A program made the position numbers and the translations under genes. Of a stretch of 64,000 nt of DNA, positions 5,993-49,480 are shown piece after piece (position 1 is the first letter of the stretch; every line of letters begins with the position of its first letter). The notes below the pieces were generated by a model. It saw nothing but the letters and a program-made list of their open reading frames with translations. It did no database searches and had not been told where the DNA came from. This stretch comes from an uncultured Pseudanabaenaceae cyanobacterium (lineage in GTDB: Bacteria > Cyanobacteriota > Cyanobacteriia > PCC-9006 > JAAUQQ01), in assembly GCA_938021205.1 (NCBI GenBank), contig CALIGI010000151.1:2818-66817 (forward strand). The letters are read 5' to 3'.

Positions 5993-6567
5993 GGAGTAGG
6001 GCTTATCAAAATCTGGTGTTGAGTGTATCGCGTTTCCCTTGGCCATTGTCGATTTTAGGAATGCCACCTTTTCCCACCACTATCGTCGATCAGAATCATC
6101 AGTAGAATTCTGCGCTTTTTTTTATGGTTTACATTGTTTTCTTAAGGTCTACAACAAAGCACCTGAAAGGCCAGAGGCCAGATGACAGAGAAAAACACAG
6201 CGCCCCAGAACAGCCTCCTCTAATCTCCAGGGCAAGTGGCTCTAATGGGTCTAGTCTGCGAAGGATGAGCAGATGAACAGCTTTTCGAGGGTTTAAGCTC
6301 TGCAATTAGGCTGGCAATGCTCACAGCGAACATTTGCATATTGCTCCTCGGAGAGACAGGCAAGTTCACCTAAATATGAATTTGGGAATTCTAGCAATAA
6401 GCCTTCGCGAGAGAGGCAAAGACTTGCGGACTGAGTCACACCGCAAGCCCTTGTGATGCAGCTACATGTAGACGATTGTATCGATTCTTCCCATGCCTGT
6501 ATCAGCATCGCTCGGTGGATTTTTGCAACCTAGGACAACTCATCCAAGGCTTAGTCCGCATTGGCTC

Positions 6568-8652
6568 ATGCAGGGAGTCTCTGCATTGTTGGGGTTGGGG
6601 ACAATCTTTTTAGGCACATCGGCCAGCCTCGCTGACATCATTGAAGATGGCTCTACACCCAGCCGCGTTATAAACTCGAGTTGCTTAGGATTTATTGGCT
6701 GCACCATTATCGGAGGTCATCAGCAGGGTAATCATCTCTTTCACAGTTTTAGTGAATTCATCATTCCTCCCGATGGTGATGCACTTCTAATCCCCCCTTT
6801 TATCCCGGAGAAAATCTTCATTCGGGTTGTAGGACCTGCAACTGAAATACACGGGAGCTTCAGAGTTCCAAATATAGGCATTCCGACGGACATCATATTT
6901 CTCAGTCCCCAAGGAATTAGGATCAGCGAAAATGCTCAGCTAGCCTATCCAGGCAACTTTTTATTTAGCACCGCAGAACGCTTAGACTTTGCGAATGGTG
7001 CAATCTTTGATGCAACGGACAGTAGCATTCCACTGCTCGATATTTCCGGACTCGATAATTTACCCCAAGCTCTACAGCTAGGCAACTCCTCAGGAGTGAT
7101 CACGCTCAATAGTTCAATAGGTCTTGAGAATATTAAACTCCCTCAAACCCAGCATCAATTCTCCGTGATCGGTGGAGAAATTAATTTTAATGCTGTTGAG
7201 CTTTCTACAGTAGGTGAGCTTCATCTTTCATCAGTCGGTCAAAATCAAACCGTCGGTTTAGATTTTTTAGAATCTGGTATTGATTTTGACTACAGCATGG
7301 TTTCAAGCTTTGAAGATATTTCCCTCAATAACGCTAGGCTTTCCACAAGCTCATTGGCCAACTCGAATGGCGATGCAGGTAATATCGAGCTTGAGGCACG
7401 AAATCTAACATTAAATAATGCGAGTGAAATTCTTGCTGAAACAGCGAGTAGTCAAGGCAATATTACAGTCGAGCTAAGGGGAGACTTATTCGTCATTGGA
7501 GATGCTTCAAAAAGGAGCCAAATCATGACTCAAATCGCGGATACAACGGGAGCCGCAGGGAACATCTCTATTTCTGCTAATGACATATTTTTTGAAAGAG
7601 GCTTACTCTCTAGCTCAACCGATCAGCCTGGTGGTGCAATTGAGATCAATGCAGCCAATACGATTCAACTGAATCAAAGCGAAATCAGGCTGAGCTCCAA
7701 GACTGGAACGGGCCACACCGGCAACCTCAACTTAACGGCCCAGTCAGCCGTGACACCCATCGGAATTTCGCTCACCGAGACGGATGTCCTCAGTGAAGCG
7801 ACCAATACAGGCGGTGATGTACGCTTCTCCACACCGGGAGAAGTTGAACTGCGGGATGGTAGTTTTATTTCGATTGATTCATCCGGCACCGATGGCAACT
7901 TTACGGTTACAGCCAGTGCTTTCCGGAGCAGTGGCATCGCTGATGACAATGACGTCCAGCTAAATCAAGGGACCTTGGGGCAGCTCTCGCTGCCTGCGGA
8001 TGTAACAGGCTTTGACGTTCTAGCCAGTCAAATAATTCGCTCCAATGGAAATAGTGAACTGTTACCCAACCCCTTTCCAGTACCAGTCGCACCCAGCCCA
8101 CCCGTACTTCCAAGTCCTATCCTCCCAGTTATTCCTTCGCCGCCGATTGATCCAATCGTGGAACCTTTGGAGACCCCAGCGAACCCAGTCATTCCGTCCC
8201 AGGCTGAAGACAATGATCTGCCAACTTCTTTAGCCTTGACCTATCCCCAGAGCAATGGAGAAAACTTACAAACTATAGAAAGCCTCTTGTCGTTCTATGG
8301 CTCTGCCTCCTTAGTCGGGGGCGAGCCGCCCTGGAGCTGTTCCGTAGCAGCAGGCAGCAGTTATTGGAAGATCAGTGGGCGTGGTGGCATTAGCAGCCCC
8401 CCGAGTAGTCTCAATGGCAACAGTGCCCCCCTCGCGGATTTGGGATCACGAGAGGAAAGTCTGGTGTCTGCCCGCACGAGTTATGTGCCTAGGCTGGTTG
8501 CTCCATTATCTGCCCGATCTGTTGCTCCAAGCCAAAACTGGCGCGAGGCTCGGAGTTGGAAGCAAGCTCATCAGGGGAAAATTGAGCTTAGAGCCGAATC
8601 AGACTTAGTCCTGACTCACGCTAAAACAGATCATTGTCAATCCCTTCAGTAG
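6568..8652 (+). CDS. Filamentous-haemagglutinin N-terminal (TPS) domain exoprotein 1
   Basis: A signal-like segment MQGVSALLGLGTIFLGTSASLA is followed by 'GGHQQGNHLFHSFSEF...IRVVG...IFLSPQGI...FSTAE' (TPS domain). Then come beta-helix-like repeats, a Pro-rich linker, and a C-terminal GRGG module. The ORF opens at 6493. Confidence 0.8.
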   Translation: MQGVSALLGLGTIFLGTSASLADIIEDGSTPSRVINSSCLGFIGCTIIGGHQQGNHLFHSFSEFIIPPDGDALLIPPFIPEKIFIRVVGPATEIHGSFRVPNIGIPTDIIFLSPQGIRISENAQLAYPGNFLFSTAERLDFANGAIFDATDSSIPLLDISGLDNLPQALQLGNSSGVITLNSSIGLENIKLPQTQHQFSVIGGEINFNAVELSTVGELHLSSVGQNQTVGLDFLESGIDFDYSMVSSFEDISLNNARLSTSSLANSNGDAGNIELEARNLTLNNASEILAETASSQGNITVELRGDLFVIGDASKRSQIMTQIADTTGAAGNISISANDIFFERGLLSSSTDQPGGAIEINAANTIQLNQSEIRLSSKTGTGHTGNLNLTAQSAVTPIGISLTETDVLSEATNTGGDVRFSTPGEVELRDGSFISIDSSGTDGNFTVTASAFRSSGIADDNDVQLNQGTLGQLSLPADVTGFDVLASQIIRSNGNSELLPNPFPVPVAPSPPVLPSPILPVIPSPPIDPIVEPLETPANPVIPSQAEDNDLPTSLALTYPQSNGENLQTIESLLSFYGSASLVGGEPPWSCSVAAGSSYWKISGRGGISSPPSSLNGNSAPLADLGSREESLVSARTSYVPRLVAPLSARSVAPSQNWREARSWKQAHQGKIELRAESDLVLTHAKTDHCQSLQ

Positions 8653-8727
8653 ATTTTATTGAGCAAGCCCATTCTCTTAAGGGACTTCCTATTTTTAAAT
8701 CACCCTGAAATCTTGCCATTTATAACC

Positions 8728-8884
8728 TGAGTTCGGCAGCCGACAAATCGACCTCATCCCCTAACCCCTTCTCCCTTAGAAGAAGGGGAACCGAACGCCA
8801 GCAGTCTGTTTCAGAGCTTTTCATGTTCCCCTCTCCCCAGGGAGAGGGGCTAGGGGTGAGGGCAGCGTCGCTTTGTCGAACTCA
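8728..8884. repeat. Nested palindromic MITE-like intergenic element
   Basis: The outer arms are TGAGTTCG..CGACAAATCGAC..CTCATCCCCTAACCCC and GGGGCTAGGGGTGAGG..GTCGCTTTGTCGAACTCA. There are two inner hairpins (CCCCTTCT/AGAAGGGG and CCCCTCTCC/GGAGAGGGG). It shares AGGGGCTAGGGG with the hairpin cluster near 23.95 kb. Confidence 0.55.
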
Positions 8885-9220
8885 TCAAACATGGCTAAAC
8901 AGTGCAAGGTTCAGAGGCTGAAAGAGGATGATTAAATCCTGGGAGGTCCCTAACTTGCTTAAATTTTTATCGGCTCAACTCGCTTTTATGCAATAGATGT
9001 CATCAGCGTAAACTCTAGGAAAAACAAACATTATTGACTTGAAAAATACTTAGTCGAAAAAGGGTAATCTTGCAATTTTCACATTCAACTTTATCTATAT
9101 CTGTAACTGTTTTTCATTCCTGAGAGCTGGGCAAGATGAACATGTGTGAGTGACTCAGTTGTAATGTAACTGCCACTAGGTCGTTATTTCTGGAGGCCCA
9201 GCAGCCTTTCTGTCATCGAT

Positions 9221-11713
9221 ATGTTAGGTCACTTTGTCTACGCGGAAATCGTTTCGACTCTCCCTCGAACGAAGCAGAATTTTGGGGTGTCGATAGACAA
9301 GTTGGCGATCGCCCCTAGCATTCTTGCAACCTTGGGCTGTGCCGCTAGCTTTTGGTTAAGCATGGCCACTACGGCGATCGCCAGCCCCGTCATACTAGAT
9401 GGCTCCACCAACAGCACTGTTCTTGATGCAGCCACAAATCTGCCCTCGGACTGTAGCTCAAGCTGCGTGATTACAGGCAACGATCAAGCAGGCAATAACC
9501 TATACCACAGCTTTAGTGAATTTCGTATTCCCCAAGGTGTGACCGTCACCCTGGATGGGCAAGGTCTAGAGCGCATTCTCGTCAGGGTCACGGGGGGTCA
9601 ACAAACCGAGATTGACGGCTTGTTACAAGTTCCAGGGCAAACGGATCTCTTTCTACTTAATCCTGCTGGGTTCGTCATTGGCAGTGAAGGGCGGTTGGAT
9701 CTGCGCGGTTCACTGATTGGCAGTACGGCGGAAGCAGTCTTGTTTGAGAATGGTGATGTCTTCTTGACGAAAACGACCAATCGCCCGCTGCTCAGCGTAT
9801 CTGTCCCGAGCGGCTTGCAGTTTGCTGCCAACAACACTGGGAGATTTTCGGTTCAAGGCGATGCCAATCTGCCTCCGCTATGGCAACCCGGTAGGCTGGG
9901 CCAAACCTTTGCCCTAGTGGTAGATAGCTCTATAGCAGCAAGCTTTTCGCAGCGCTCCCACGCCGTGACTGCCGGAGGTTTCGTGTTGGCTAATGTGGGC
10001 TTTGGCCCTCAACAGGTTGACTTAGCTAAAGCGACGGCAGGATGGGACTTTGATTTTTCCAATGTTGCTCAGGTCAGGGCTGTAGAACTGGATCGGGCGG
10101 TGATCTCTACCTCTCTCTCTAGCCCTGGAGGCCTGATTGAACTCGATGGAGAAGTGACGTTGACTGATAGTGAGGTCCTTCTTCAGTCCCAAAATGGCAT
10201 CGCTGCAGGTAATTTCCTATTGAGGGGTGGGTCACTCACGCTTAACCGAAGTCGATTGCTGACCCAGACGGATGCGGGTGGGGGTGAGATTAATCTCCAA
10301 ACGGCTCTCCCGACGGAGGCCGGTGATCCAGGAGTATTAGTCCTAAAGAACAACAGCCAAATTGTCACGACTTCAGTACTGGGTCCTGCTGGAAATATTA
10401 GCTTCGCAGGTAATTCGGTCACTCTCAGCAATAGCTCTATTGCCACGGAGTCCCATGATGGCGGGGGAAATATTTCCCTCCGTGCCAGCGATGCGATCGC
10501 CTTAAATGCTGATAGTCTTCTATCTGTGCAATCGAATGGTGCTGGCCAGGTTGGAGATATTACGATTGAAGCGCTGGGGCCTGAAGGCTTTCGACTCAGA
10601 AACAGCCAAATTCTTTCGACGGTAGAGACAGAAGGCGGTGATATCTCCATTGTCGCGCCTCAGCAGTTGACCTTCACTGGAGGAGAATTGATCGCCTCTA
10701 CAGCCCTCGCGGGAGCCAATGTGAGCTTGCGCACCGATGGGGATATAGAACTAGATAACGATGATTTTATCTCGCTCAACTCAGGCAATGGCATCTATGC
10801 CGGAACAGGAGGACAGCTGACGATTGAAGCGCAGCAGGTGGATAGTGTTGGGGGCAATACCGATATTCAAGTCGTGGGTCTTGAGGGAAGTCTCAATATA
10901 GAAGTCCCTCAATCTAGCCTGTTTGAAGGGTTTGCAGGCTTTCGAAATGTGAATCGGAATAACCGGAGTAGCGAAATTCAGATCACACCGCTACCGCCGT
11001 TTCCCTCTCCTCCACCTGTCATTCCACCCTCTCCTCCACCTATCATTCCGCCCTCCCCTCCACCTGTCATTCCGCCCTCCCCTACGCCTCCCGTCGTTAT
11101 CCCTGAGCCGCCGCTGGTCGTCACACCTGAGCCGCCGCTTCTTGAGCCAGTCCTACAGCCTTCACCGAACGTATTGCCAGTCATTAGTCTTCCAAGCGTT
11201 GATGTTGTAGCCCCCACTGAACAACCTGTTGGAGCTGAAAAAGAACGTCTGTTTACCTCGATTTCGATCGCTCTAGGGCTCAATCGCGACGACAGTGAAG
11301 CAATGGCGATCGCCTCCGGTTCTTCTCCTGCTTTTGATTCGGCCTATGATGCTCGACGCCCAGGCTGTGAACGTCAGGCGACCAGAGCGAATGGCGGAAG
11401 GCTGCGACTGATGGGGCGAGGCGGTCTGCCGAAACAGCCAGGAAGTTTAGTCACCTCCAGCCAGCTCTTGGCCGATCTCGGTCAACCCGGTTTTGCCCTA
11501 GGACGTCATATCAATGGGACTGGACTGGGGGACTGGCCCATCTCAGTTGGGAACAATGCAGTAGAGACGGGGAAACAACCCAAGCTCCAGGAAGCCCAGG
11601 GGTGGAAAATCACGACTGCTGGCAAGGTTCAGTTACTGGGCAGAGTTCAAGCTCCTGTCATCGGCGCAATCAAGCCCTGTCGCATCACACCTGTGACTGC
11701 TGGAGAGGAATAG
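9221..11713 (+). CDS. Filamentous-haemagglutinin N-terminal (TPS) domain exoprotein 2
   Basis: 830 aa. The TPS domain reads 'GNDQAGNNLYHSFSEFRIP...LVRVTGG..TEIDG...LFLLNPAGF...GSTAE'. It continues with a long Gly/Ser/Asn-rich beta-helix region, a PPSPPP(V/I)I repeat linker, and a C-terminal GRGGLP module. Confidence 0.85.
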   Translation: MLGHFVYAEIVSTLPRTKQNFGVSIDKLAIAPSILATLGCAASFWLSMATTAIASPVILDGSTNSTVLDAATNLPSDCSSSCVITGNDQAGNNLYHSFSEFRIPQGVTVTLDGQGLERILVRVTGGQQTEIDGLLQVPGQTDLFLLNPAGFVIGSEGRLDLRGSLIGSTAEAVLFENGDVFLTKTTNRPLLSVSVPSGLQFAANNTGRFSVQGDANLPPLWQPGRLGQTFALVVDSSIAASFSQRSHAVTAGGFVLANVGFGPQQVDLAKATAGWDFDFSNVAQVRAVELDRAVISTSLSSPGGLIELDGEVTLTDSEVLLQSQNGIAAGNFLLRGGSLTLNRSRLLTQTDAGGGEINLQTALPTEAGDPGVLVLKNNSQIVTTSVLGPAGNISFAGNSVTLSNSSIATESHDGGGNISLRASDAIALNADSLLSVQSNGAGQVGDITIEALGPEGFRLRNSQILSTVETEGGDISIVAPQQLTFTGGELIASTALAGANVSLRTDGDIELDNDDFISLNSGNGIYAGTGGQLTIEAQQVDSVGGNTDIQVVGLEGSLNIEVPQSSLFEGFAGFRNVNRNNRSSEIQITPLPPFPSPPPVIPPSPPPIIPPSPPPVIPPSPTPPVVIPEPPLVVTPEPPLLEPVLQPSPNVLPVISLPSVDVVAPTEQPVGAEKERLFTSISIALGLNRDDSEAMAIASGSSPAFDSAYDARRPGCERQATRANGGRLRLMGRGGLPKQPGSLVTSSQLLADLGQPGFALGRHINGTGLGDWPISVGNNAVETGKQPKLQEAQGWKITTAGKVQLLGRVQAPVIGAIKPCRITPVTAGEE
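11009..11104 (+). repeat. 24-bp in-frame tandem repeat (3 good copies and 1 degenerate) encoding a PPPVIPPS proline-rich linker
   Basis: CCTCCACCTGTCATTCCACCCTCT / CCTCCACCTATCATTCCGCCCTCC / CCTCCACCTGTCATTCCGCCCTCC / CCTACGCCTCCCGTCGTTATCCCT, read directly from the sequence. Confidence 0.85.
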
Positions 11714-11844
11714 GTTGCTTGATCTGAGCTCTTGAACTGAGATATCTATCAGCTTGTTCTTCGTGACGTATCTCAAGTCGCTAGAACTTGAGATAAACCA
11801 GTGCAACTCACCTAAGCCATTCGCGCTCTTCATTAGATTCAGAT

Positions 11845-14502
11845 ATGAAACTCTTCAGATTGAAAAGCGTGATGCATCGCTGGTTGCAGTCTCGCCGTCG
11901 AGGGGTAGCCTTCTGTTTGTTGCTAGGCTTTGGTCTCAGTTTCTGCTCCCCGATGCTGGTGGTGAAGGATGCAGTAGCAATAATGCCTCAGCCTCCCTTG
12001 CCACAGGTGCAGGTGAACTCGCTTGAGGGCTCTCTCGATCCTGTTGAGGCAGAACAGCAGGGCAATGCGGCCTATCAAGCCGGGGCCTATGAGCAGGCCA
12101 CTCAACTGTGGCAACAGGCGGCCCAACGCTATCAACAGCAATCTGAACTGGCTGGCTACAGTCGCAGCCTGAGCAATTTATCCTTGGCCTATCAAGCCTT
12201 GGGCCAGTGGCCTGAGGCAGAGCAGGCGATCGCCCAAGCACTTCAGCTAGCATCAGGCCAGCCTCCTGCCATTGCAGCCCAAGCCCTGAACACCCAGGGG
12301 CAGCTGCGCTTTGCCCTGGGCCAGTCTCGCGAGGCTTTGAATAGCTGGACCTTGGCAGAGATCGCCTATGGGAAAGTCTCCGACGAATTGGGTCTGATGC
12401 GTAGCCAACTCAATCAAATTCAAGCGCTGCGCAGTCTGGGATTCTACCGCCGGGCGCTGAATCAAATGGAGCAGTTGGAGCCTCGGTTTTTGAATTTGCC
12501 CGAAACGCCCTTTAGGGTTGCAGCTTTGACTCAAGCCGGAGAACTGCTGCGCTTGGCTGGAGATACAAATCAAGCCCAGGCATATTTAGAAGAAGCCATT
12601 GAGCTAGGCGATCGCCTCGGTCAAGCCAGCGAAACAGCCCAGGCCCTGATGAACCTAGGCGCCTTGGCCCAAACCAGCCGAGAGCCGAATCAAGCCTTGT
12701 CTTATTACGACCGTGCCCTCGCCCTGGCGCTAACGACCCAAAAGCGCAGCTCAATCCAGCTTGCAAAGTTGAGCCTGCTGATACAACAGAAAAATAGCGT
12801 GGCGGCAGAGCAGCTATCGAGCCAAATCCAAACTGAAATTGAGCGCCTTCCCAGTAGCCACCAATCCAGCTACCAGCGCATTGATTTGGCCAATCAACTG
12901 ATGTCGCTCAAGGGACTGGATCGGTCGAGCTTGGACTGGAACGTCATCGAGAAGCTGTTACAACAGACCCTAACTGAAGCCCAAGTGCTGGAAGACTCCC
13001 AGGCTGAGTCCTATGCTCGAGGCAATCTGGCCCAGGCCTATCTCCAACAAAATCGCCTGGAGGCAGCAGAGGCGCAGGCAAGCCAAGCGCTTCTACTTGC
13101 CCAGGACCTCTCGGCCAAGGAGATGACCTATCGCTGGCAGTGGACCCTAAGCCAAATTCAAATGCAGCAGGGTCACGGGGAAGAGGCGATCGCCAATTGT
13201 GGCGAAGCTGTCGCAACCCTTCAAACCCTGCAAGATGACTTAGTGGCACTCAATCCAGATGTTTTATTCTCCTTCCGTGAGGACATCGAACCCATTTATC
13301 GAGGCTACGTAGACATGCTGCTCCAGGCGGACAATCAGTTAGAGCAGCATCAGCAAACGTTGCAGCAAGTCCAGACGGTGAGCCAGAGCTATTTGTCTCA
13401 AGCACAGCAAGCGACTCGCAGTTTACGCCTCTCGGAGATGACAAATTTTTTGGGAGCAAATTGCCTCCCAGATGCGACGGCGAATCAAACAGTTTCCATT
13501 GGCCAAATTGATCCGCAAGCTGCCGTGATCTATCCCATCGTTCTCAAGGATCGCTTAGAAATCTTGCTGAACTTGCCGGATCAATCTATACGACATTTTA
13601 CGGTGCCGGTGGCCCAAGAAAAAGTAGAATCCCTGATTAAAGAGTTGCGCTATTACTTGGTGGTGCGCAGTCGTCGTCGCTATTTGCCCTTGTCTCAGAA
13701 GCTCTATGACTGGATGATCCGTCCCTTAGAGCAGGAGCTAGAGGGTATTGAGACGCTCATCTTTTCGCCAGATGGCGTTTTTCAAGGCATTCCCATGGCG
13801 GCTCTCCATGATGGCGAGCAGTTTTTAATTGAGCGTTATCAAGTCGCTTTGAGCCCTAGTTTGGACCTGTTTGAGTCTCAGCCTTTAGACAACAGCAAAA
13901 TCTCGGTCTTAGCCGCAGGGCTGAGTCAAGCACGCCAGGGCTTCTCAGCTCTACCATTTGTTGAGGAAGAAATTAGCAATATTCAGCAGCGCATTGCGGA
14001 AACTACGGCCCTAGTAGATGAGGACTTTACCCAAGCGGCTTTGCGCGATCGCATCACCCAAAGCAATGCTCCCATCATCCACATTGCCACCCACGGTCAA
14101 TTTGGCTCTCGCCCAGAGGATACCTTCCTTTTGGCCTGGGACCAATCGGTCAATGTTCAACAAATTGACCAACTGCTCCAAAGCCGCAACCTGTCTCAGG
14201 GCCAAGCACTTGAACTGCTAGTGCTCAGTGCCTGTGAGACTGCTGCGGGGGATAGCCAAGCCATGTTGGGGCTCGCTGGCCTGGCCATTCAGGCTGGGGC
14301 AAGAAGTACCCTGGCGACGCTGTGGAGCGTGAACGATGCGGGCACTTCCACGCTGATGGAAAACTTTTACACCGCCCTATCTCAACCGGGAATGGGTCGT
14401 GCGAAGGCGCTGCGTCAGGCTCAGTTGGAAATGCTGAAGGATCCAGTTTACCAACACCCGCTCTATTGGGCGTCCTATGTGATGGTGGGCAATTGGTTAT
14501 AG
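11845..14502 (+). CDS. TPR-repeat + CHAT-domain (caspase-fold) protease
   Basis: 885 aa. It has an N-terminal hydrophobic anchor or signal ([14 protein letters not shown]) and about 450 aa of TPR-like repeats ([15 protein letters not shown].. pattern). The C-terminal CHAT domain carries the dyad contexts '[10 protein letters not shown]' (His) and '[13 protein letters not shown]' (Cys). Confidence 0.9.
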
Positions 14503-15630: not shown

Positions 15631-15738
15631 CGTGAGTTGCCAGGGAATGAGGGTGAAGGTGAGGGGCTTTAGCAATGCTAAACCCGAATCTGGCCTTAAC
15701 CACAGGTTTTGGTTGGGGAATTCCTTTGGGCTTGGCGA

Positions 15739-20006: not shown

Positions 20007-20173
20007 AGATGCAGATTTAGAGCTTGAGGCTGTGCTGGCAGAATAAGCCGAAGTTGCATCACCACAACGGATTGCTCGGCCTTTTCCCTGGCACCAGCCA
20101 TGAATGACATCGCTAGCCCATGTTTGAGTTCGTTTCTTGAGTTCGTTTCTTGACTTCCTCTTCCCCGCAACCC

Positions 20174-22315
20174 ATGGCCTCCTCCTCTAATCAACTCCTG
20201 ACTAGCGTTGCGAAAAAGTATCCCCTGCGGATTGCGGCTAGCATTGTGCTAGGCCTCTCGGGAGCTGTTTTCAATGGCATTGGCACAACGCTGATTGTGC
20301 CTGTCTTGCTTTCATTGATTGGCCAGGAGACCACTTTGGATGGGGGGCCACCGCTGCTGCAAAAGATTTTGTCGCCCTTTGATGCGATCGCCGGGGACTA
20401 TCGCATCCAAGCCATGACCGGCGTCATTATTCTGCTCATCTTCCTCAAAAGCGCCACCAACTATGGCAGCACCCTCGTTTCTACGACCCTGGCTCGCCGC
20501 GTCACCTCGGACTTTCAAGAACAAGGTATTAACCTCATCCTGGATGTGGATGTGGACTACTTCGCCAAAATGCGGGTCGGTGACTTGATGAACCGCCTCG
20601 GGGGCGAAATGAATCGAGCCACTCTGGCCATCACCGGAGCCGTTCAGCTCTTTGTGGCAGCCTCAACCGTCTTCGTATTTTTGGGGATTTTAATTGCCAT
20701 TTCTCCGGCGATCAGCATTGCCACAGTGCTAATTTTCCCTCTATCGATCCTGATCAACCGGGGCTTGATCATCAATTCAAAGCGGTTTGGAAAGCAACTC
20801 TCCCTCGTTAACAATCGCTATTCCAGCGGCCTTGTAGAACTCATTGGCGGGATGCGCCTGGTGCGGGCAACAGGTAATGAAGGCAGAGAGCATAAGCGTT
20901 TCATTGACTTAATTAAAGAACGGGAACGGATCGACTTTTTCGCGAAGGCCAATACTGGGGTGATTGGTCCCCTAGCTGAATTTTTCAACATCATGGCGCT
21001 GTTTGCGATCGTCTTTATTAGCCGCGCTATCTTCGCCAACAACTTAGAGCTGCTGGGCACGATCCTGCCGCTCTACATGATCTTGATCTTCCGCATGTTG
21101 CCCTACATCAGTCAGATCAATACAGCGCGGGATGTCCTGGCCATGTCTTCTTCTCCAATGGAAGTGGTCAACGACATGCTGCGTCGCGACAACAAGAGCT
21201 TTATGCCCCGTAACCATGAGCCTTACCCCGGCCTACAGAGCGACATCGAATTCCAAAACCTACATTTCGGCTATCCCGGTGGCGATGATCTGGTCTTGTG
21301 CGGCATTGATTTAACCTTGCCCAAAGGCACCACCCTGGCCTTAGTCGGTTCATCCGGTGCAGGCAAATCCACCCTAGCAGAGCTGCTGCCTCGCTTCTAT
21401 GACCCCAGCGGCGGCCAAATTATCATTAACGATCGCGACTTACGCGACTATGATATTGCCTCCTTCCGCCGCACCATCGGCATTGTGAGCCAGGAAACCT
21501 TCCTGTTTAACAACACCGTGCGCTACAACCTGGCCTATGGTCGCCCCGAGGCCACGGATGAGGAAATCAACGCTGCCCTGCGCCAGGCCAATGCCTATGA
21601 GTTTGTTCAAGAGATGAGCGAAGGGTTGGACACCGTTGTGGGCGATCGCGGCATCATGCTCTCTGGTGGCCAACGCCAGCGCCTTGCCATTGCCCGCGCC
21701 CTGGTGCAAGATCCCGAGATTCTCATTCTTGACGAAGCCACCAGCGCCTTGGATACGGTGTCGGAGCGATTGGTGCAAGCAGCGATCGATGAGTTGAGTA
21801 AGGAACGCACCACCTTGGTCATTGCTCACCGCCTTTCCACGGTCCGCAAAGCCGATCAAATTGCCGTGCTGGATCAGGGCCGCGTGGTGGAGCTGGGCAG
21901 TCACGATATGCTACTCAAGCAAGGTGGCCTCTATAGCGAATTGCACAATATGCAGGCCGCGAAGCAGAGTGAAGCAGTAGAAGACATTGAAGCTGGAGAT
22001 ATGGAGCCAGCCGCTATTCTGGAGCCAGCCGCTATTGCAGCCCAAACAACCGTTCTGGAGCAAACAGCCATTTTGGAGCAAACAGCCATTGCCCGTAAAG
22101 CCGAGCAAACGGTGATGGCTCAGCTCAAACTCGTTCCCATGTCCTATGAAACGCGATCTATCATGACGGCAATGATTGGCTCTCTGGGACTGCTCGCCGA
22201 TAATTTGGTTGAGACCGAACAGGAACGCAGTGAGCTGTCTCGCGATGCTTATGATTCAGCATTGGAAGTCTTGAAGCGCCTGGAGCGTTTGGAAGAAAGC
22301 GGCCTAAGCTCGTAA
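20174..22315 (+). CDS. ABC exporter, fused permease/ATPase (MsbA-like) with an atypical ~120-aa C-terminal extension
   Basis: A six-helix TMD is followed by Walker A 'GSSGAGKST', the signature 'LSGGQRQR', Walker B 'ILILDEATSALD' and the H-loop 'IAHRLS'. The ATG at 20174 is preferred over the TTG at 20150. Confidence 0.9.
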   Translation: MASSSNQLLTSVAKKYPLRIAASIVLGLSGAVFNGIGTTLIVPVLLSLIGQETTLDGGPPLLQKILSPFDAIAGDYRIQAMTGVIILLIFLKSATNYGSTLVSTTLARRVTSDFQEQGINLILDVDVDYFAKMRVGDLMNRLGGEMNRATLAITGAVQLFVAASTVFVFLGILIAISPAISIATVLIFPLSILINRGLIINSKRFGKQLSLVNNRYSSGLVELIGGMRLVRATGNEGREHKRFIDLIKERERIDFFAKANTGVIGPLAEFFNIMALFAIVFISRAIFANNLELLGTILPLYMILIFRMLPYISQINTARDVLAMSSSPMEVVNDMLRRDNKSFMPRNHEPYPGLQSDIEFQNLHFGYPGGDDLVLCGIDLTLPKGTTLALVGSSGAGKSTLAELLPRFYDPSGGQIIINDRDLRDYDIASFRRTIGIVSQETFLFNNTVRYNLAYGRPEATDEEINAALRQANAYEFVQEMSEGLDTVVGDRGIMLSGGQRQRLAIARALVQDPEILILDEATSALDTVSERLVQAAIDELSKERTTLVIAHRLSTVRKADQIAVLDQGRVVELGSHDMLLKQGGLYSELHNMQAAKQSEAVEDIEAGDMEPAAILEPAAIAAQTTVLEQTAILEQTAIARKAEQTVMAQLKLVPMSYETRSIMTAMIGSLGLLADNLVETEQERSELSRDAYDSALEVLKRLERLEESGLSS
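22004..22093 (+). repeat. 18-bp in-frame tandem repeats (x5) encoding E(P/Q)(A/T)AIL hexapeptides in the ABC exporter tail
   Basis: GAGCCAGCCGCTATTCTG GAGCCAGCCGCTATTGCA GCCCAAACAACCGTTCTG GAGCAAACAGCCATTTTG GAGCAAACAGCCATTGCC. Confidence 0.85.
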
Positions 22316-22815: not shown

Positions 22816-23706
22816 TTACCGAAAGGTCAGTAGCTCAGACGTGGCAGTAATTAGATCAGATTGTATGACATAGGCATTCTGCGCCGTGGCTATTAAATCA
22901 CCCCTTAGCAAAATCTTAGTGCTCACTTGAGAACCAATCGTACTGTATTCCAGTGAATAGTTGCTAGTGCTTCCATTAACTACAATCTGATCTCGCTCTT
23001 GCCATGTGAAGTCAGTAATGAGGACATCACCGGTGCCTCGATAGAAACTAGCGCCCGTATCACCTAAAACAAATAGGTCAGCACCACCTCCACCTGTGGC
23101 AAGATCGAGTTCCCCAGTATTCCCAGAAAATGTCTGCCCTGAGCCTCGAAGAATATCTCGTCCTGTTCCACCGTAGAGTGTGTCATTACCGAAAGCAGAA
23201 CCTATGAGTTCATCATTGCCTGATCCACCATCGAGTCTGTCATCGCCAGAGCGACTGAAGAGTCTGTCATTGCCTGGACCTCCATATAATTCGTCATTGC
23301 CAAAGGCACCAGAAATATGGTCATCGCCAGAGCCACCTTCTAGAATGTCACCGTTTTGGCTCCTTGTGGTAATTGTGTCATTACCGGAGCCACCAGAGAC
23401 ATAGTTATCACCAAAGCCAGCAGCCAGGGTGTCATTACCTGGACCTCCATATAACTCGTCATTGTCATCAAACCCAAAAAGACGGTCATCGCCGGGGCCA
23501 CCCGAAAGAAAGTCATCACCATCACGACCTGAAAGAAAATCATTACCAGAGCCACCAAAGATACTGTCATCTTGGATGCTACCTGTCAGATTATCATTTC
23601 CTCCCTTTCCGTTGATTGTCCAAGACTTAACAAAGTCAGGGACTCTAAAGACATCATTCCCATCGGTTCCAATATAGCGGCCTTCGTAAACTTCCATTGT
23701 GATCAT
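22816..23706 (-). CDS. RTX-type (haemolysin-type) calcium-binding repeat protein
   Basis: 296 aa with more than 12 nonapeptide GGxGxDxLx repeats (GGSGNDFLSGRDGDDFLSGGPGDDRLFG...) and a non-repeat C-terminal beta-rich domain. Confidence 0.85.
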   Translation of the reverse strand: MITMEVYEGRYIGTDGNDVFRVPDFVKSWTINGKGGNDNLTGSIQDDSIFGGSGNDFLSGRDGDDFLSGGPGDDRLFGFDDNDELYGGPGNDTLAAGFGDNYVSGGSGNDTITTRSQNGDILEGGSGDDHISGAFGNDELYGGPGNDRLFSRSGDDRLDGGSGNDELIGSAFGNDTLYGGTGRDILRGSGQTFSGNTGELDLATGGGGADLFVLGDTGASFYRGTGDVLITDFTWQERDQIVVNGSTSNYSLEYSTIGSQVSTKILLRGDLIATAQNAYVIQSDLITATSELLTFR

Positions 23707-36558: not shown

Positions 36559-37893
36559 ATGACACCCCTAGAACAACTCCGCACTGGCCAGCTTGCCGGT
36601 AGCAAACACTTTCAACTCGCCAGCGGCGTGACCGATTTTCCTTCAGAAATTTTTGACTTGGCTGACAGCCTCGAATTTCTCGACCTCTCCCATAACAACC
36701 TGAGCGCACTGCCAGACAACTTTAGTCAGCTTAAGCAGCTTAAGATCGTCTTCTTCAATAAAAATCAATTTGAGGAATTTCCTCCTGTCTTGGCAGATTG
36801 CCCCCAACTGTCCATGGTTAGCTTTAAGGGCAATCAATTGAAGGCGATCGCCCCCCAGGCGCTCTCTCCCAACTTCCGCTGGCTCATCCTCACCAACAAC
36901 CAGCTCACCTCACTTCCTAGCAATATCGGCCAACTCAAAAAACTACAAAAGCTAATGCTAGCCGGGAATCGGTTGCGATCGCTCCCTCCTGAATTAGCCA
37001 ACTGCCACAACCTTGAACTCATTCGCATCGCAGCCAACCAGCTGACGGAGTTCCCCACCTTTCTCCTAAAACTTCCTCGCCTCGCTTGGATTGCTTACGC
37101 GGGTAACCCGTTCTGCCAACCTGACATCACCTCTAAAACTGAATTACCCGTTGTTGATTCAGCGACCTTGAAAGTCGGCGAGATCTTGGGCCAAGGGGCT
37201 TCTGGCGTGATCTATCAAGGGAGCTGGAAGCCTCACAAGGGTGAGCAATCCCAAGCCGTCGCTATCAAAAAATTCAAAGGCGAAATCACCAGCGATGGCT
37301 CTCCCCTAGACGAAATGCGCGCCTGCATTGCCGCAGGTAGCCACCCAAACCTCGTCAGTGTCCTGGCGAAGTTAAATGAAAAAGCCGATAGCAATGGTCA
37401 AGCTGGTCTCCTGTTTGACCTGCTTGCCAAGGACTATCAGAACCTAGGTGGGCCACCTAGCTTAGACAGTTGTACCCGAGACACTTACAGCGATGAAACC
37501 CGCTTTACCCTGGAACAAATCCTCACCATCGCCAAAGGCATCGCCTCTGTCGTTGCCCACCTGCACCAGCGGGGTATTCTCCACGGCGACCTCTACGCCC
37601 ACAACATTCTTGTTAATCCTCAGGGTCACAGTATTCTGGGTGATTTTGGCGCGGCATCCTTCTACAACCCAGCGAATCAAGACATGGCTCAACCACTAGA
37701 GCAGCTAGAAGCTCGTGCCTTTGGCTGCTTGCTGGAAGACTTACTGGATCGCTATATCCCAGATGAGAACGAAACCAGTGCAGCGCAATCTAGCCTACGC
37801 AGCCTACGCCAACTCCAGCAAAACTGCATGACCAACAACCCTAGCGATCGCCCCAGTTTCACAGATATTTGCCAACAATTCTCCCACCTCTGA
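36559..37893 (+). CDS. Leucine-rich-repeat + protein kinase fusion
   Basis: The N-terminus carries about 7 LRRs (LxxLxLxxNxLxxLP, e.g. LEFLDLSHNNLSALPDNF). The C-terminal kinase domain has 'LGQGASGVIY', 'VAIKKFK', 'HGDLYAHNILV' and 'LGDFGAA'. Confidence 0.85.
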   Translation: MTPLEQLRTGQLAGSKHFQLASGVTDFPSEIFDLADSLEFLDLSHNNLSALPDNFSQLKQLKIVFFNKNQFEEFPPVLADCPQLSMVSFKGNQLKAIAPQALSPNFRWLILTNNQLTSLPSNIGQLKKLQKLMLAGNRLRSLPPELANCHNLELIRIAANQLTEFPTFLLKLPRLAWIAYAGNPFCQPDITSKTELPVVDSATLKVGEILGQGASGVIYQGSWKPHKGEQSQAVAIKKFKGEITSDGSPLDEMRACIAAGSHPNLVSVLAKLNEKADSNGQAGLLFDLLAKDYQNLGGPPSLDSCTRDTYSDETRFTLEQILTIAKGIASVVAHLHQRGILHGDLYAHNILVNPQGHSILGDFGAASFYNPANQDMAQPLEQLEARAFGCLLEDLLDRYIPDENETSAAQSSLRSLRQLQQNCMTNNPSDRPSFTDICQQFSHL

Positions 37894-46813: not shown

Positions 46814-49480
46814 CTAAGAACTCAAATTTATAGTGGGTAGACAATGGGTATCCAACTTTTGAACTCTTAAGCATTGATTTATGCCACCAATTGCTTGATT
46901 ATATTCATTCACTCGACCTTGAATTTCAAGTTTTAATTGCCCTCGCTTTGCCAAATACTCACTAGCATTTTCTTTTGCAATGCCTTCTAAACGCTTGCGT
47001 GCGTGTTCATATTGATCAACGATAGAATTCCTTAAGGTTCGGGATAGTTCTACGGATAAATGCTTTTTGAGTCTTTGATTAACCGATTGGCGAAAAGTTA
47101 GTTCAATAGTTTCATAGACTTTAGGCTCAAAGTCTAGTTTGAGAAGCTGGCGAATTCCATCCTCAGTACCAGTTAAGCCCTCATGATTAGATTTTTGTGA
47201 ATGCTGCTTTAGGATTTGACGAATATGACCAATAGAGAATGTTTCCTGGTCGTATAAAGGTAATTTTTCTTTTAAAAATGGATCACGCTGAGCATCTACT
47301 TCATTTAAAACTATCTGCTTTACTTCGTTTAACAAGCGTCTTGCTGCCTCTGGATCAGGAGTTGAACCCTCTATAAAAAGATTTAAAAAAGCATCCGCTA
47401 AAGCGTCTGTTCTGAACACCTTTTCAATAAAACTAAAGAAAAGACCACTGAATGCGCGTTTTGCTTCAGCCGCTAAAAATGCATCATAAAAACTAAGACT
47501 CTCTCTAATATAGCGATCACAGATAACATTTATTTCTCGTTCAACATCATTGATTGTATCATTCTTCTTCTGTAAAATATCTTGAATTATACCAGCATCA
47601 TGACCAATTAATTCGTTTAGAGCCAGATAGGAATCTGATTTTCGAACTCTATTTAATAGGCTTTCAAAAAAAGAGTTTATGACTTCTTTCGCTTCTTTCA
47701 CGAAAACGATTTCTATCGAGCTTGAAAGGAAATAGAAAGCTTCAACTAATACTCCTAAGAATGGGGCAGTAGAATTATCTCGAACTAGAGTTGCAGACTT
47801 ATATAGTTGTTGAACTGAGAGGTTTGAAAGAAGCTCATCTAGTTTTTTGATGATAGAGCTCTTAAGTCTCTGAAAAGAATCCTCAAAATTTGAATCTTCT
47901 CCAGCAATTACCTGAGAAACTACTTGCTCAATATCCATACTTATTGAATCCGAGATATCTTGAAGCTGTTGAAAAATTTGGTTTAATTGAGCAGATTCAA
48001 TCTCTTCTATTCTCTGTGATTGATTTCCCAAATCATGAAATTTTGAGGTGTAAAAATTCCTTAGGCTGGTAGATATTGGTTTTAAGTCATTGACTAAATC
48101 TTTAAATAATTGAGGGCGTTTTTCATCTTCCAAATAACGAGTAATTGTAGAGTTAAAGCCTATTTTTTCACCTTGATCTTCAATGCCACTGTCTTGAAGA
48201 AGTTTGTCAAGTATAGGAATCTCTAAGAGACCAAGAATAGCAAGATATTTTTGATTAGAAGATAAGTTAGCTAAGTTCTTATCACCATCAAATGGATTAA
48301 GACCAGAACCTTTAAGCTTAGGAGAAGAAAGACAATACTTATTGAATTCATATACAAATTGTGGGGTCTTCTCCTCCTTGTCTAAATCTTCATTACTGAT
48401 TGAGAAAATATCTCTCAAGCCCCAAGATTTATCTCGATTATTATTGTTTTTTACTCTACTACCATAAAAGCTAAGTAGTGCACTAGTTTTAAAGAGTCTT
48501 CCTTCCTCACAAGCAACTCTAAAATCAGAATTAATTAGATTTTTTAATCGATCTGAAAGTTCATTATTGTCCCAGGTGTCATCGATTCGATTGAAGACAT
48601 AGAAAACCCTATCGCGAATGCTCGGATTACTCCTCAATTTCTCGAGCAAGTCCATTTCTTCTATAGTCGGATCACCTGTTGAAGCTGCCTTGAGCACACA
48701 AATAATTGCCGATGTGTCAGGATCTTCTTCTATCTTGTCGTAAGTGATTTTGGCATCTTGTGCGACTGGTGCATCAATACCTGGAGTATCAACTAGGATA
48801 TTTCCATCCTCTAACAAGGAATGATTCAAATAATATTCAATCTTCTCCAGAACGGCAGCATTTGACCCATATCGTGCGTATTCAGCAGCACTCTCAAGAT
48901 TAGAAAGTTTAAGCTGCTCCATTGAATAAGGTGTTGGAGTATCCTGATGAATATTCCCTTGATTTTTCTTAAAGCCTTGTATCAAAAACACGAGTGACTG
49001 AGCTTGCCTTGCGGACTCTGAATGACTCTTTCCAGGTTCTTTATCGATGATTTCCCTACACTGCTTTAGTAAATTTTCGACCTCATTTCCTTGACTAATA
49101 TTTGATACAGGCTTGATCTCTAAAATCTCACATAGTGCATTCATTCTTGCTTGAATTTTCCTACGACTCATAAACGTAAGAACTACCTTCTCCGCTCCAA
49201 TTTCAGCATATTGAATGCGGCACTCTGTGCTGGTTGTATGCCCTTCAGAGCTATACAACAGCTCTTTACCCAAGACTGCATTAATGAGCATAGATTTGCC
49301 AGCACTAAAAGCACCAACAAAAACAATCTCAAAACTAGACGAAACTACTTTTTTGAGCGAAGCCTCTAAATATGAGATATCCTGCTTTGGAATATCATTC
49401 TCTTGATTAATTAGATACAATAGAGTATCGACACAAGTTTCTATATTTTGATATTCGAGCAAACCTGAGCTATCTTTCAT
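46814..49480 (-). CDS. Bacterial dynamin-like GTPase (888 aa)
   Basis: G1 is 'GAFSAGKSMLINAVLG', G2 is a Thr in 'EGHTTST', G3 is 'LVDTPGIDAP', and G4 is 'VFNRIDD'. A long helical stalk-like C-terminal region follows. The gene is markedly AT-rich relative to its neighbours. Confidence 0.85.
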   Translation of the reverse strand: MKDSSGLLEYQNIETCVDTLLYLINQENDIPKQDISYLEASLKKVVSSSFEIVFVGAFSAGKSMLINAVLGKELLYSSEGHTTSTECRIQYAEIGAEKVVLTFMSRRKIQARMNALCEILEIKPVSNISQGNEVENLLKQCREIIDKEPGKSHSESARQAQSLVFLIQGFKKNQGNIHQDTPTPYSMEQLKLSNLESAAEYARYGSNAAVLEKIEYYLNHSLLEDGNILVDTPGIDAPVAQDAKITYDKIEEDPDTSAIICVLKAASTGDPTIEEMDLLEKLRSNPSIRDRVFYVFNRIDDTWDNNELSDRLKNLINSDFRVACEEGRLFKTSALLSFYGSRVKNNNNRDKSWGLRDIFSISNEDLDKEEKTPQFVYEFNKYCLSSPKLKGSGLNPFDGDKNLANLSSNQKYLAILGLLEIPILDKLLQDSGIEDQGEKIGFNSTITRYLEDEKRPQLFKDLVNDLKPISTSLRNFYTSKFHDLGNQSQRIEEIESAQLNQIFQQLQDISDSISMDIEQVVSQVIAGEDSNFEDSFQRLKSSIIKKLDELLSNLSVQQLYKSATLVRDNSTAPFLGVLVEAFYFLSSSIEIVFVKEAKEVINSFFESLLNRVRKSDSYLALNELIGHDAGIIQDILQKKNDTINDVEREINVICDRYIRESLSFYDAFLAAEAKRAFSGLFFSFIEKVFRTDALADAFLNLFIEGSTPDPEAARRLLNEVKQIVLNEVDAQRDPFLKEKLPLYDQETFSIGHIRQILKQHSQKSNHEGLTGTEDGIRQLLKLDFEPKVYETIELTFRQSVNQRLKKHLSVELSRTLRNSIVDQYEHARKRLEGIAKENASEYLAKRGQLKLEIQGRVNEYNQAIGGINQCLRVQKLDTHCLPTINLSS

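Follow-up and report, generated by a model that had tools for sequence, protein, structure and literature searches.

Organization of the locus

We analysed a stretch of 64,000 nucleotides (nt), referred to here as the window, from contig CALIGI010000151.1 of an uncultured Pseudanabaenaceae cyanobacterium. It contains two genes for exoproteins of the two-partner secretion (TPS) type, TPS1 and TPS2, followed by a gene for a protein with tetratricopeptide repeats (TPR) and a CHAT domain. The three open reading frames (ORFs) were verified at the coordinates listed in Table 1; ORF calling and Pfam searches agreed with an earlier note on this DNA, which had read the locus as two exoproteins and then a TPR-CHAT protein on one strand. 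The pairing recurred in other cyanobacteria, and the exoproteins shared a conserved C-terminal tail that may be the target of the putative protease.

Both exoproteins matched the Pfam TPS domain PF05860 above its cut-off of 33.5 bits (TPS1, 79.4 bits, E 5e-22; TPS2, 107.8 bits, E 1e-30). The related model TIGR01901 was matched by TPS2 at 57 bits, above the 29.1 cut-off, and TPS1 scored just 19.8 bits. The TPS motifs quoted previously were present in TPS1 (NHLFHSFSEF at residue 80, RVVG at 111, SPQGI at 138, STAE at 159) and in TPS2 (NNLYHSFSEF at 92, RVTG at 122, NPAGF at 147, STAE at 168). Judged by this defining domain, TPS1 and TPS2 are members of the TpsA family. They are collinear paralogues with 28% identity, built to a common plan of signal-like N-terminus, TPS domain, beta-helix-type repeats, proline-rich linker and C-terminal module. 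Each has a single hydrophobic segment at residues 28-50, followed by ASLA/D and AIA/S-like sites, as a possible Sec signal peptide.

The 885-residue protein matched several TPR families as well as CHAT (PF12770; 223.5 bits, E 5e-66, cut-off 24) over profile positions 2-289 of 289. One hydrophobic segment was found near its N-terminus (residues 20-40) and no second transmembrane-like segment. His750 (ATHG) and Cys797 (SACET) were invariant in two 18-sequence orthologue alignments, and the N-terminal segment, TPR region and CHAT domain with an intact His/Cys dyad were confirmed as first described. The protein is by its defining domain a CHAT family member, with predicted protease activity. An alternative start at 11872 gives 876 residues, and this form (P0001) was called on a public 5.9-kb Logan contig. 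Full-length TPR-CHAT orthologues occur throughout the cyanobacteria. In the AlphaFold model the TPR arm had a predicted local distance difference test score (pLDDT) above 90. When the PDB was searched by sequence, the full-length profile matched TPR proteins only, and the CHAT domain by itself, whether as one sequence or as an 18-sequence profile, gave nothing significant. A fold search with the model likewise gave generic TPR proteins, with separase only at a low TM-score.

TPS2 and the CHAT gene are 131 nt apart with no terminator-like site between them, and TPS1 and TPS2 are separated by a spacer of 568 nt. Promoter and terminator scans of the locus gave counts at or under the shuffle expectation.

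Table 1. Positions of genes, protein parts and the spacer element at the locus (numbering of the window).
Feature	Position (nt)	Strand	Details
TPS1, TpsA-type exoprotein, 719 residues	6493..8652	+	PF05860 match, signal-like N-terminus
TPS domain of TPS1	6697-7392	+	Pfam
Proline-rich linker of TPS1	8056-8136	+	
TPS1 tail module	8338..8637	+	Cys616; GRGG at residues 629-632 (nt 8377-8388); EARSW hairpin motif (nt 8545-8592); Cys715; 98 residues between cysteines; local hidden Markov model (HMM), E 1.8e-16
Imperfect palindrome, MITE-like, in the TPS1-TPS2 spacer	8741..8880	not assigned	DNA fold and sequence matches
TPS2, TpsA-type exoprotein, 830 residues	9221..11713	+	PF05860 match
TPS domain of TPS2	9464-10114	+	Pfam
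Proline-rich linker of TPS2	10988-11098	+	
TPS2 tail module	11366..11680	+	Cys716; GRGG at residues 732-735 (nt 11414-11425); EAQGW hairpin motif (nt 11591-11638); Cys820; 103 residues between cysteines; local HMM, E 1.2e-16
TPR-CHAT protein, 885 residues	11845..14502	+	TPR families and PF12770
Signal/anchor of TPR-CHAT	11902-11964	+	
TPR superhelix	~12034-13224	+	
CHAT domain	13687-14493	+	
His750	14092-14094	+	
Cys797	14233-14235	+	

A conserved C-terminal tail on the exoproteins

The conserved C-terminal module that had been proposed for the two exoproteins was confirmed by a tail HMM and by motif counts, and it proved more regular than the earlier note could see. A G[RK]GG motif sits 85-95 residues before the end in 58 of 62 complete CHAT-linked TPS proteins, both window proteins included. 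Across 157 motifs the consensus was F-[VIT]-[IV]-T-G-R-G-G-[LIV]-P-P-[NTS]-P, with Arg at the key position in all but two of them (155), which have Lys. Exactly two cysteines were present within the last 140 residues in 136 of 139 tail-bearing proteins, one placed 12-15 residues ahead of the GRGG motif and the other 2-13 residues from the C-terminus. No further cysteine followed residue 60 in 126 of the 139, the mature part being 700-2,000 residues long. A second motif, EAxGW-x5-G-x-V-x-L, lies between the GRGG motif and the final cysteine.

An exhaustive profile search for the tail recovered 9,844 representative clusters at E <= 1e-3, including 2,116 at E <= 1e-30; a word-indexed search with the tail profile gave chiefly short gene fragments. 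The tail was at the extreme C-terminus in 150 of the 150 best profile matches. The Pfam TPS domain was found in 41 of 50 sampled full-length carriers, and no other domain was recurrent. As judged from these sequences, the tail occurs specifically on TPS proteins. Pfam and NCBIfam have no entry for its roughly 100 residues, and the source annotations of tail carriers read just 'S-layer family protein' or 'large exoprotein'.

AlphaFold, run with a 53-sequence alignment, predicted a flexible tail of mostly low confidence in which the sole confident element was a beta-hairpin over the EAxGW motif. In the model the tail thus resembles a string of linear motifs rather than a globular domain, and a flexible tail with a single hairpin would suit a TPR ligand.

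Four short proteins of 170-217 residues (P0144, P0158, P0168 and P0240), encoded on contigs of 84 kb to 3.8 Mb, consist of little beyond the tail module. They may represent free-standing cassettes of the tail, split genes or pseudogenes.

Linkage of TPS and TPR-CHAT genes

To assess co-occurrence across cyanobacteria, a check that the earlier note had proposed, we scanned one genome per species with the CHAT protein. Of the 594 relatives recovered, the best 80 loci were taken for analysis; all of them were cyanobacterial, with 37-44% identity to the query. Neighbouring genes were identified by ORF calling and locally built HMMs, and the 68 loci with at least 2.5 kb upstream were evaluable. A TPS gene was the next gene upstream of CHAT in 37 of these 68, whereas TPS genes accounted for 2.9% of the ORFs at distances over 6 kb (binomial p 8e-39). 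In a first-pass count of 33 of the 68 loci, the TPS gene was on the CHAT strand at a median gap of about 40 nt. Tandem TPS genes were seen, up to three or four per locus.

The reverse anchor was independent of CHAT: the peptide [VIM]TGRGGLPP, taken from a subset of seven sequences in the tail alignment, was searched in metagenome contigs and yielded 65 evaluable TPS genes. TPR-CHAT followed directly in 21 of the 65; another nine were followed by the gene for the outer-membrane partner TpsB and then TPR-CHAT. A CHAT gene was present somewhere in the locus for 43. Enrichment was thus seen from both anchors (37/68 and 30/65).

The linkage extended to further genes. A gene for a secreted DUF928 protein directly followed CHAT in 30 of 68 loci; the protein has a signal peptide followed by its own invariant motif, GG(A/G)SR...C. 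A membrane sensor gene with CHASE2, an extracytoplasmic sensor domain, was present in 41 of 80 loci, and the output domains of these sensors were adenylate/guanylate cyclase, His-kinase plus receiver, SpoIIE phosphatase and Ser/Thr-kinase. The full module order was TPS (one to four genes), TpsB (in 22 of the 160 genome and metagenome loci), TPR-CHAT, DUF928 and CHASE2 sensor. Among 37 loci with full flanks, 18 had TPS, DUF928 and CHASE2, five had DUF928 and CHASE2 without TPS, and three had TPS only, like the window. Neither DUF928 nor CHASE2 was found in the window, where tblastn matches were at chance level only, nor at the locus in the four closest relatives, which retain TPS and/or CHAT. 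By its gene content, the window locus is a reduced TPS-TPS-CHAT copy of a predicted cyanobacterial envelope module. Full-text literature searches returned no description of the TPS-CHAT linkage, the tail or the four-gene module.

Two observations concern neighbours of other kinds. Fusions of a Ser/Thr protein kinase with an FGE-sulfatase (SUMF1-like) domain co-cluster with CHASE2 sensors, and one lies directly downstream of CHAT in locus L076 (3379-5331). At L169 (3929-8794), where the CHAT orthologue is 46% identical, a DUF928 gene and two genes for PEP-CTERM (exosortase-sorted) proteins lie upstream of CHAT with no TPS gene, which hints that the protease/DUF928 pair can go with other classes of surface protein.

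Absence of a TpsB gene from the window

TpsA proteins are partnered by a TpsB transporter, classically encoded next to them, and the earlier note had reported none among the window ORFs. Pfam scans agreed: there was no match to ShlB, POTRA_2 or Omp85 in 33 window ORFs (the three genes of the locus and the remaining 30 non-shadow ORFs that reach 150 residues). When eight cyanobacterial TpsB proteins were searched by tblastn against the whole window, the best E was 0.94, not even a pseudogene remnant. Five close relatives likewise showed no TpsB at the syntenic locus. The absence is real in the window but not special to it, since among 160 related loci only 22 had a linked ShlB/POTRA_2-type TpsB (8 of the 80 from genomes and 14 of the 80 from metagenomes), typically between TPS and CHAT, and it was unlinked in the rest. 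One TpsB can serve several TpsA proteins (PMC5422565), and the TpsBs of cyanobacteria are reported to be mostly HMW1B-type (PMC4104836). The CHAT protein was also considered as a TpsB substitute and rejected: it has no match to an Omp85/ShlB barrel family, and it co-occurs with a real TpsB in the 22 loci.

Turnover of TPS genes in close relatives

Close relatives shared the flanking genes but differed in how many TPS genes fill the slot (0, 1, 1, 2 and 3, the window having 2). The locus L168, whose CHAT protein is 64% identical to that of the window, has three: two of the TPS1 type and a full-length TPS2 orthologue (54%) adjoining CHAT. L085 (CHAT 79% identical) and L086 (78%) each have one TPS1-type gene and degraded TPS2-like sequence, before CHAT at 8901-10000 in L085 (tblastn E 7e-17) and at 9678-10000 in L086 (E 4e-10); these fragments include the C-terminal module (tblastn E 7e-17, 1e-15 and 4e-10). 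L087 (CHAT 68% identical by blastp, or 72% over 92% of the query in the orthologue search) has lost both TPS genes, and its CHAT gene is intact with the dyad kept. TPS1 is the orthologue of the lone TPS gene in the closest relatives and TPS2 is the CHAT-proximal type. The decayed remnants in the two closest relatives indicate that TPS2 is ancestral at its position and was lost by decay.

Identities among the relatives were 48-56% for TPS orthologues, in the C-terminal halves only, compared to 78-79% for CHAT, 76-78% for CbiJ and 91% for the FMN dehydrogenase. This difference indicates a fast-evolving passenger and an array in flux, as expected of exposed surface proteins. The lower GC content noted for TPS1 was real (0.485, against 0.536 in TPS2 and 0.539 in CHAT) but lay within the gene-to-gene spread of the window: other genes averaged 0.517 +/- 0.051, with a range of 0.36 to 0.60, and TPS1 was no outlier. 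Its low GC was limited to the fast-evolving N-terminal part (0.452 over the N-terminal 420 residues).

The palindromic element resembling a miniature inverted-repeat transposable element (MITE), described together with a spacer of about 570 bp, was also recovered. Its 140 nt folded as DNA at -35.9 kcal/mol (z -5.1), and 0 of 200 shuffles were as stable. The palindrome is single-copy within the window. Its arms were 92-100% identical to several copies in Tolypothrix tenuis PCC 7101 (L048, 3507-4126 and 6105-6459) and to one in a metagenome-assembled Oscillatoria genome (L034). This recurrence in distant cyanobacterial loci points to a dispersed, MITE-like repeat family, and the element is probably no part of the protein system.

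Surrounding genes

Both flanks consist of housekeeping genes. Upstream are CbiJ, a glyoxalase and an HLIP-like gene; downstream are an FMN-dependent dehydrogenase gene, which is convergent with CHAT and directly adjoins it, and an RmlD-like gene. The ORF of the dehydrogenase (IDI-2/FMN_dh-like) overlaps the CHAT ORF by 6 nt at the 3' ends (14497-14502); its true start probably lies downstream of the listed one (TTG at 15675), as the proteins of relatives align from residue 16. The window carries HIP1-type GCGATCGC palindromes, and all homologues found were cyanobacterial, both pointing to a cyanobacterial source. Among public sequencing runs, window sequence turned up solely in DNA data sets of marine and reef metagenomes, one marine run containing 98% of its sequence words.

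Elsewhere in the window, an ABC transporter gene (ABC_membrane and ABC_tran; 20150-22315, + strand) lies beside a gene for a 296-residue protein with seven matches to RTX calcium-binding repeats (22816-23706, - strand). The arrangement resembles a type I secretion pair, which would be a second and unrelated exoprotein system. A 444-residue protein with leucine-rich repeats and a Ser/Thr/Tyr protein kinase domain (36559-37893, + strand) has a eukaryote-like receptor-kinase architecture. Also encoded are an 888-residue bacterial dynamin-like protein (46814-49480, - strand; Dynamin_N, E 2e-17) and an 874-residue fusion of nucleotidyl transferase/left-handed beta-helix with phosphoglucomutase/phosphomannomutase (158-2782, - strand), which has the same position in L085-L087.

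A proposed role for the protease

The earlier note had suggested that the CHAT protein matures, tethers or regulates the TPS proteins, for example by cutting at their C-terminal module. Linkage, the shared module, the predicted export of all three proteins and the precedents of CdrA/LapG, HMW1 and HxuA lend partial support to such a role. The missing TpsB is not specific to this locus, the CHAT protein is no substitute for the transporter, and the note did not recognise the locus as a reduced form of a larger module with DUF928 and CHASE2. Our favoured reading, held with slightly better than even confidence, is that the protease trims or releases TPS surface proteins through their conserved, cysteine-flanked tail and that the module is a TPS-linked cell-envelope system.

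According to this model, TPS1 and TPS2 (type Vb) would pass the inner membrane by Sec and be threaded, N-terminus first, through the outer membrane by a TpsB encoded elsewhere in the genome. The beta-helical passenger would be displayed on the cell surface, and the tail of about 100 residues would stay in the periplasm, where its two cysteines may form a disulfide that anchors or stops the chain, on the pattern of HMW1, HxuA and CdrA. TPS1, TPS2 and TPR-CHAT are all predicted to be exported, so protease and tail could meet in the periplasm. The TPR superhelix may bind the linear motifs of the flexible tail, and the clan-CD active site of CHAT would then cut it. Many clan-CD peptidases accept a basic P1 residue, which makes a cut after the near-invariant Arg of T-G-R-G-G the most plausible. 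Cleavage would mature or release the exoprotein, or otherwise alter its state. The CHASE2 sensors that adjoin the protease gene, along with DUF928, in most relatives have cyclase, kinase and phosphatase outputs and suggest that cleavage is coupled to signalling where DUF928 and CHASE2 are present; the window copy would be without that layer.

A more ambitious version treats TPS, TPR-CHAT, DUF928 and CHASE2 together as an envelope-spanning system of proteolytic signalling and adhesin release, widespread in Cyanobacteriota, in which a disulfide-closed tail is cut at TGR/GG and the cut is coupled to cAMP/cGMP, phosphorylation or two-component outputs. We offer this version as tentative, with chances clearly short of even.

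Several observations weigh against trimming or release by the protease. No partner was found within 10 kb in 23 of 68 CHAT-anchored loci and for 18 of 65 tail-anchored TPS genes, and in the close relative L087 the intact CHAT gene stands without an adjacent TPS gene; together these suggest that the protease acts in trans or has other substrates. DUF928 and CHASE2, absent from the window, are linked to CHAT as tightly as TPS is. The GRGG motif lies inside the loop between the cysteines, so a single cut would leave the fragments disulfide-linked and a simple one-cut release is not self-evident. The known CHAT proteases HetF and Csx29 are cytoplasmic. The catalytic core of CHAT was modelled at a pLDDT of about 30, which makes the model uninformative on the S1 pocket and hence on Arg specificity. 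Contact of the protease with the tail, and its cleavage, are what we infer from linkage, topology, motifs and analogy.

Alternative explanations

In the likeliest of the alternatives TPS is sensor and not substrate. The surface TPS filament would be a sensor of contact or ligand that activates TPR-CHAT, which would cleave DUF928 or the periplasmic part of CHASE2 and so change a second-messenger or phosphorylation output; the window would keep the sensor and protease halves. Such an arrangement fits the position of DUF928 directly after CHAT (30/68) and the frequency of CHASE2 (41/80), as well as the 18 of 37 loci with TPS, DUF928 and CHASE2 and the five with DUF928 and CHASE2 that lack TPS. 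The invariant GG(A/G)SR...C motif of DUF928, and the cyclase, His-kinase, SpoIIE or Ser/Thr-kinase outputs on the CHASE2 partners, are likewise in keeping with it. The window and the four closest relatives, however, have no DUF928 or CHASE2 at the locus and yet keep TPS and/or CHAT. A sensing role would also leave the TPS-specific tail with its invariant basic residue unexplained, unless the tail is the contact point for the protease. We regard this alternative as rather unlikely but still plausible, and it overlaps with the model of tail cleavage.

PorU is a clan-CD peptidase that removes the C-terminal domain from type IX secretion cargo and attaches the cargo to the envelope, and TPR-CHAT might similarly be sortase-like, removing the tail and joining the exoprotein covalently to peptidoglycan, lipopolysaccharide (LPS) or the S-layer. 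A conserved module resembling a sorting signal at the C-terminus of thousands of cargo proteins, with a dedicated clan-CD peptidase gene, would be expected of such a system, and the public annotation 'S-layer family protein' points the same way. The acceptor and the transpeptidation are hypothetical, however; characterised CHAT enzymes are hydrolases, and the tail has no membrane-spanning segment, unlike most sorting signals. This explanation appears improbable.

A polymorphic toxin of the contact-dependent inhibition (CDI) type would have TPS deliver a C-terminal toxin, with CHAT as releasing peptidase or immunity factor. The variable TPS copy number among close relatives (0, 1, 1, 2, 3) and the fast divergence of the passenger are features that such a toxin could show, and caspase-like releasing peptidases have been described in polymorphic toxins. 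The C-terminus is conserved, however, and not variable; it is about 100 residues long and mostly non-globular, with no match to a toxin family. The pretoxin motifs VENN and NxxLYN were not found in TPS1 or TPS2, and no small immunity gene comes next, CHAT following TPS2 after 131 nt. A toxin role is therefore very doubtful, and membership in the CdiA/BcpA class was ruled out by the absent pretoxin motif, the conserved C-terminus and CHAT as the next gene.

Anti-phage defence of the Craspase or CHAT-effector type is equally hard to credit. TPR-CHAT proteases are reported to act in type III-E CRISPR systems (10.1101/2023.06.23.546230), and mutation in a TPS-type protein lowers phage adsorption in Nostoc 7120 (PMC10811720). 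PADLOC gave only a generic TPR match and a marginal BovA match (E 0.0011), however, Pfam scans of the window revealed no cas or gRAMP gene nearby, and the export signals on all components place them outside the cytoplasm. Membership in type III-E Craspase was ruled out by the lack of cas genes in the window and the export signal on TPR-CHAT.

Chance adjacency of unrelated genes, which could account for the roughly one third of loci without a partner within 10 kb from either anchor, is the least credible explanation of all, as a p of about 1e-38 across 80 species, the shared strand, the median gap of about 40 nt and the reciprocal result from an independent anchor show that the TPS-CHAT pairing is not chance.

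Significance

Cyanobacterial surface proteins with this tail make up about 10,000 representative clusters, and no family model describes it. If tail cleavage by TPR-CHAT is correct, it would be the first extracytoplasmic role and substrate class for CHAT/caspase-like proteases. It would also open a way into the orphan domains DUF928 and CHASE2, which in the wider signalling version would gain a first ligand or function in this context, and offer a testable route by which cyanobacteria may control surface filaments in adhesion, mats, aggregation and phage adsorption. In phage-resistant substrains of Nostoc sp. PCC 7120, mutations were found in a gene for a TPS-type protein and, in a separate substrain, in the CHAT-domain gene all2170 (PMC10811720).

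Comparison with known systems

Two-partner secretion is in the textbook a two-gene system, and the genes of maturation proteases normally lie outside TPS operons (PMC5422565). Across the cyanobacterial phylum this rule is inverted: it is the putative protease whose gene shares the operon, and the transporter gene usually lies apart.

The closest parallel is CdrA of P. aeruginosa, a TpsA protein held by a C-terminal 'cysteine hook'. LapG, a cysteine protease of the periplasm, releases it by cutting its periplasmic tail under control of cyclic di-GMP (PMC5422565, PMC11898600). Both systems have a TpsA adhesin with C-terminal cysteines, a periplasmic cysteine protease and a membrane signalling protein with a second messenger, here as predicted from the genes. 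LapG has the fold of a transglutaminase-like peptidase, whereas the protein here is a TPR-CHAT protein of clan CD with no LapG-like Pfam match. The LapG site TAAG is absent from TPS1 and TPS2, in which the conserved motif is TGRGGLP. The lapG gene lies outside the cdrAB operon; in the present loci the operon includes the protease gene and mostly lacks tpsB. In place of LapD, the genes linked here encode CHASE2 sensors and DUF928.

In HMW1 and HxuA of H. influenzae, a short C-terminal region that needs a disulfide between two conserved cysteines tethers the TpsA protein, and this region is held in the periplasm or in the pore of an HMW1B-type TpsB (PMC3983070, PMC5422565). The exoproteins described here also have two conserved C-terminal cysteines, whose disulfide is proposed by analogy, and the commonness of HMW1B-type TpsBs in cyanobacteria is a further likeness. 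The HMW1 loop is about 10 residues long and within the last 20 residues, in contrast to about 100 residues between the cysteines here. The present loop holds two conserved motifs, a dedicated protease gene adjoins and there is no HMW1C-like glycosyltransferase.

The C-terminal portion of FhaB from Bordetella is retained in the periplasm and removed by the proteases SphB1, DegP and CtpA (PMC5422565, PMC8263021). That prodomain is about 1,200 residues long and has no sequence similarity to the present tail, and the proteases are serine proteases encoded away from fhaB/fhaC.

Among CHAT proteins, HetF of Anabaena and Csx29 share PF12770 with the His/Cys dyad, and Csx29 is also TPR-CHAT. For HetF, a protease of cyanobacteria, a defined substrate is reported (PMC9457339). 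Both proteins differ from the present one in being cytoplasmic; here there is an N-terminal export signal and no CRISPR or heterocyst context. The type IX system with PorU offers a likeness of another sort, a conserved C-terminal module on many secreted proteins that is removed by a dedicated clan-CD cysteine peptidase. It belongs to another secretion system and phylum, its C-terminal domain is folded and Ig-like where the present tail is flexible, and homology is not expected.

By analogy, the present system would work like CdrA/LapG combined with an HMW1-type anchor while being a member of neither, as protease fold, motif, loop length and sensors all differ.

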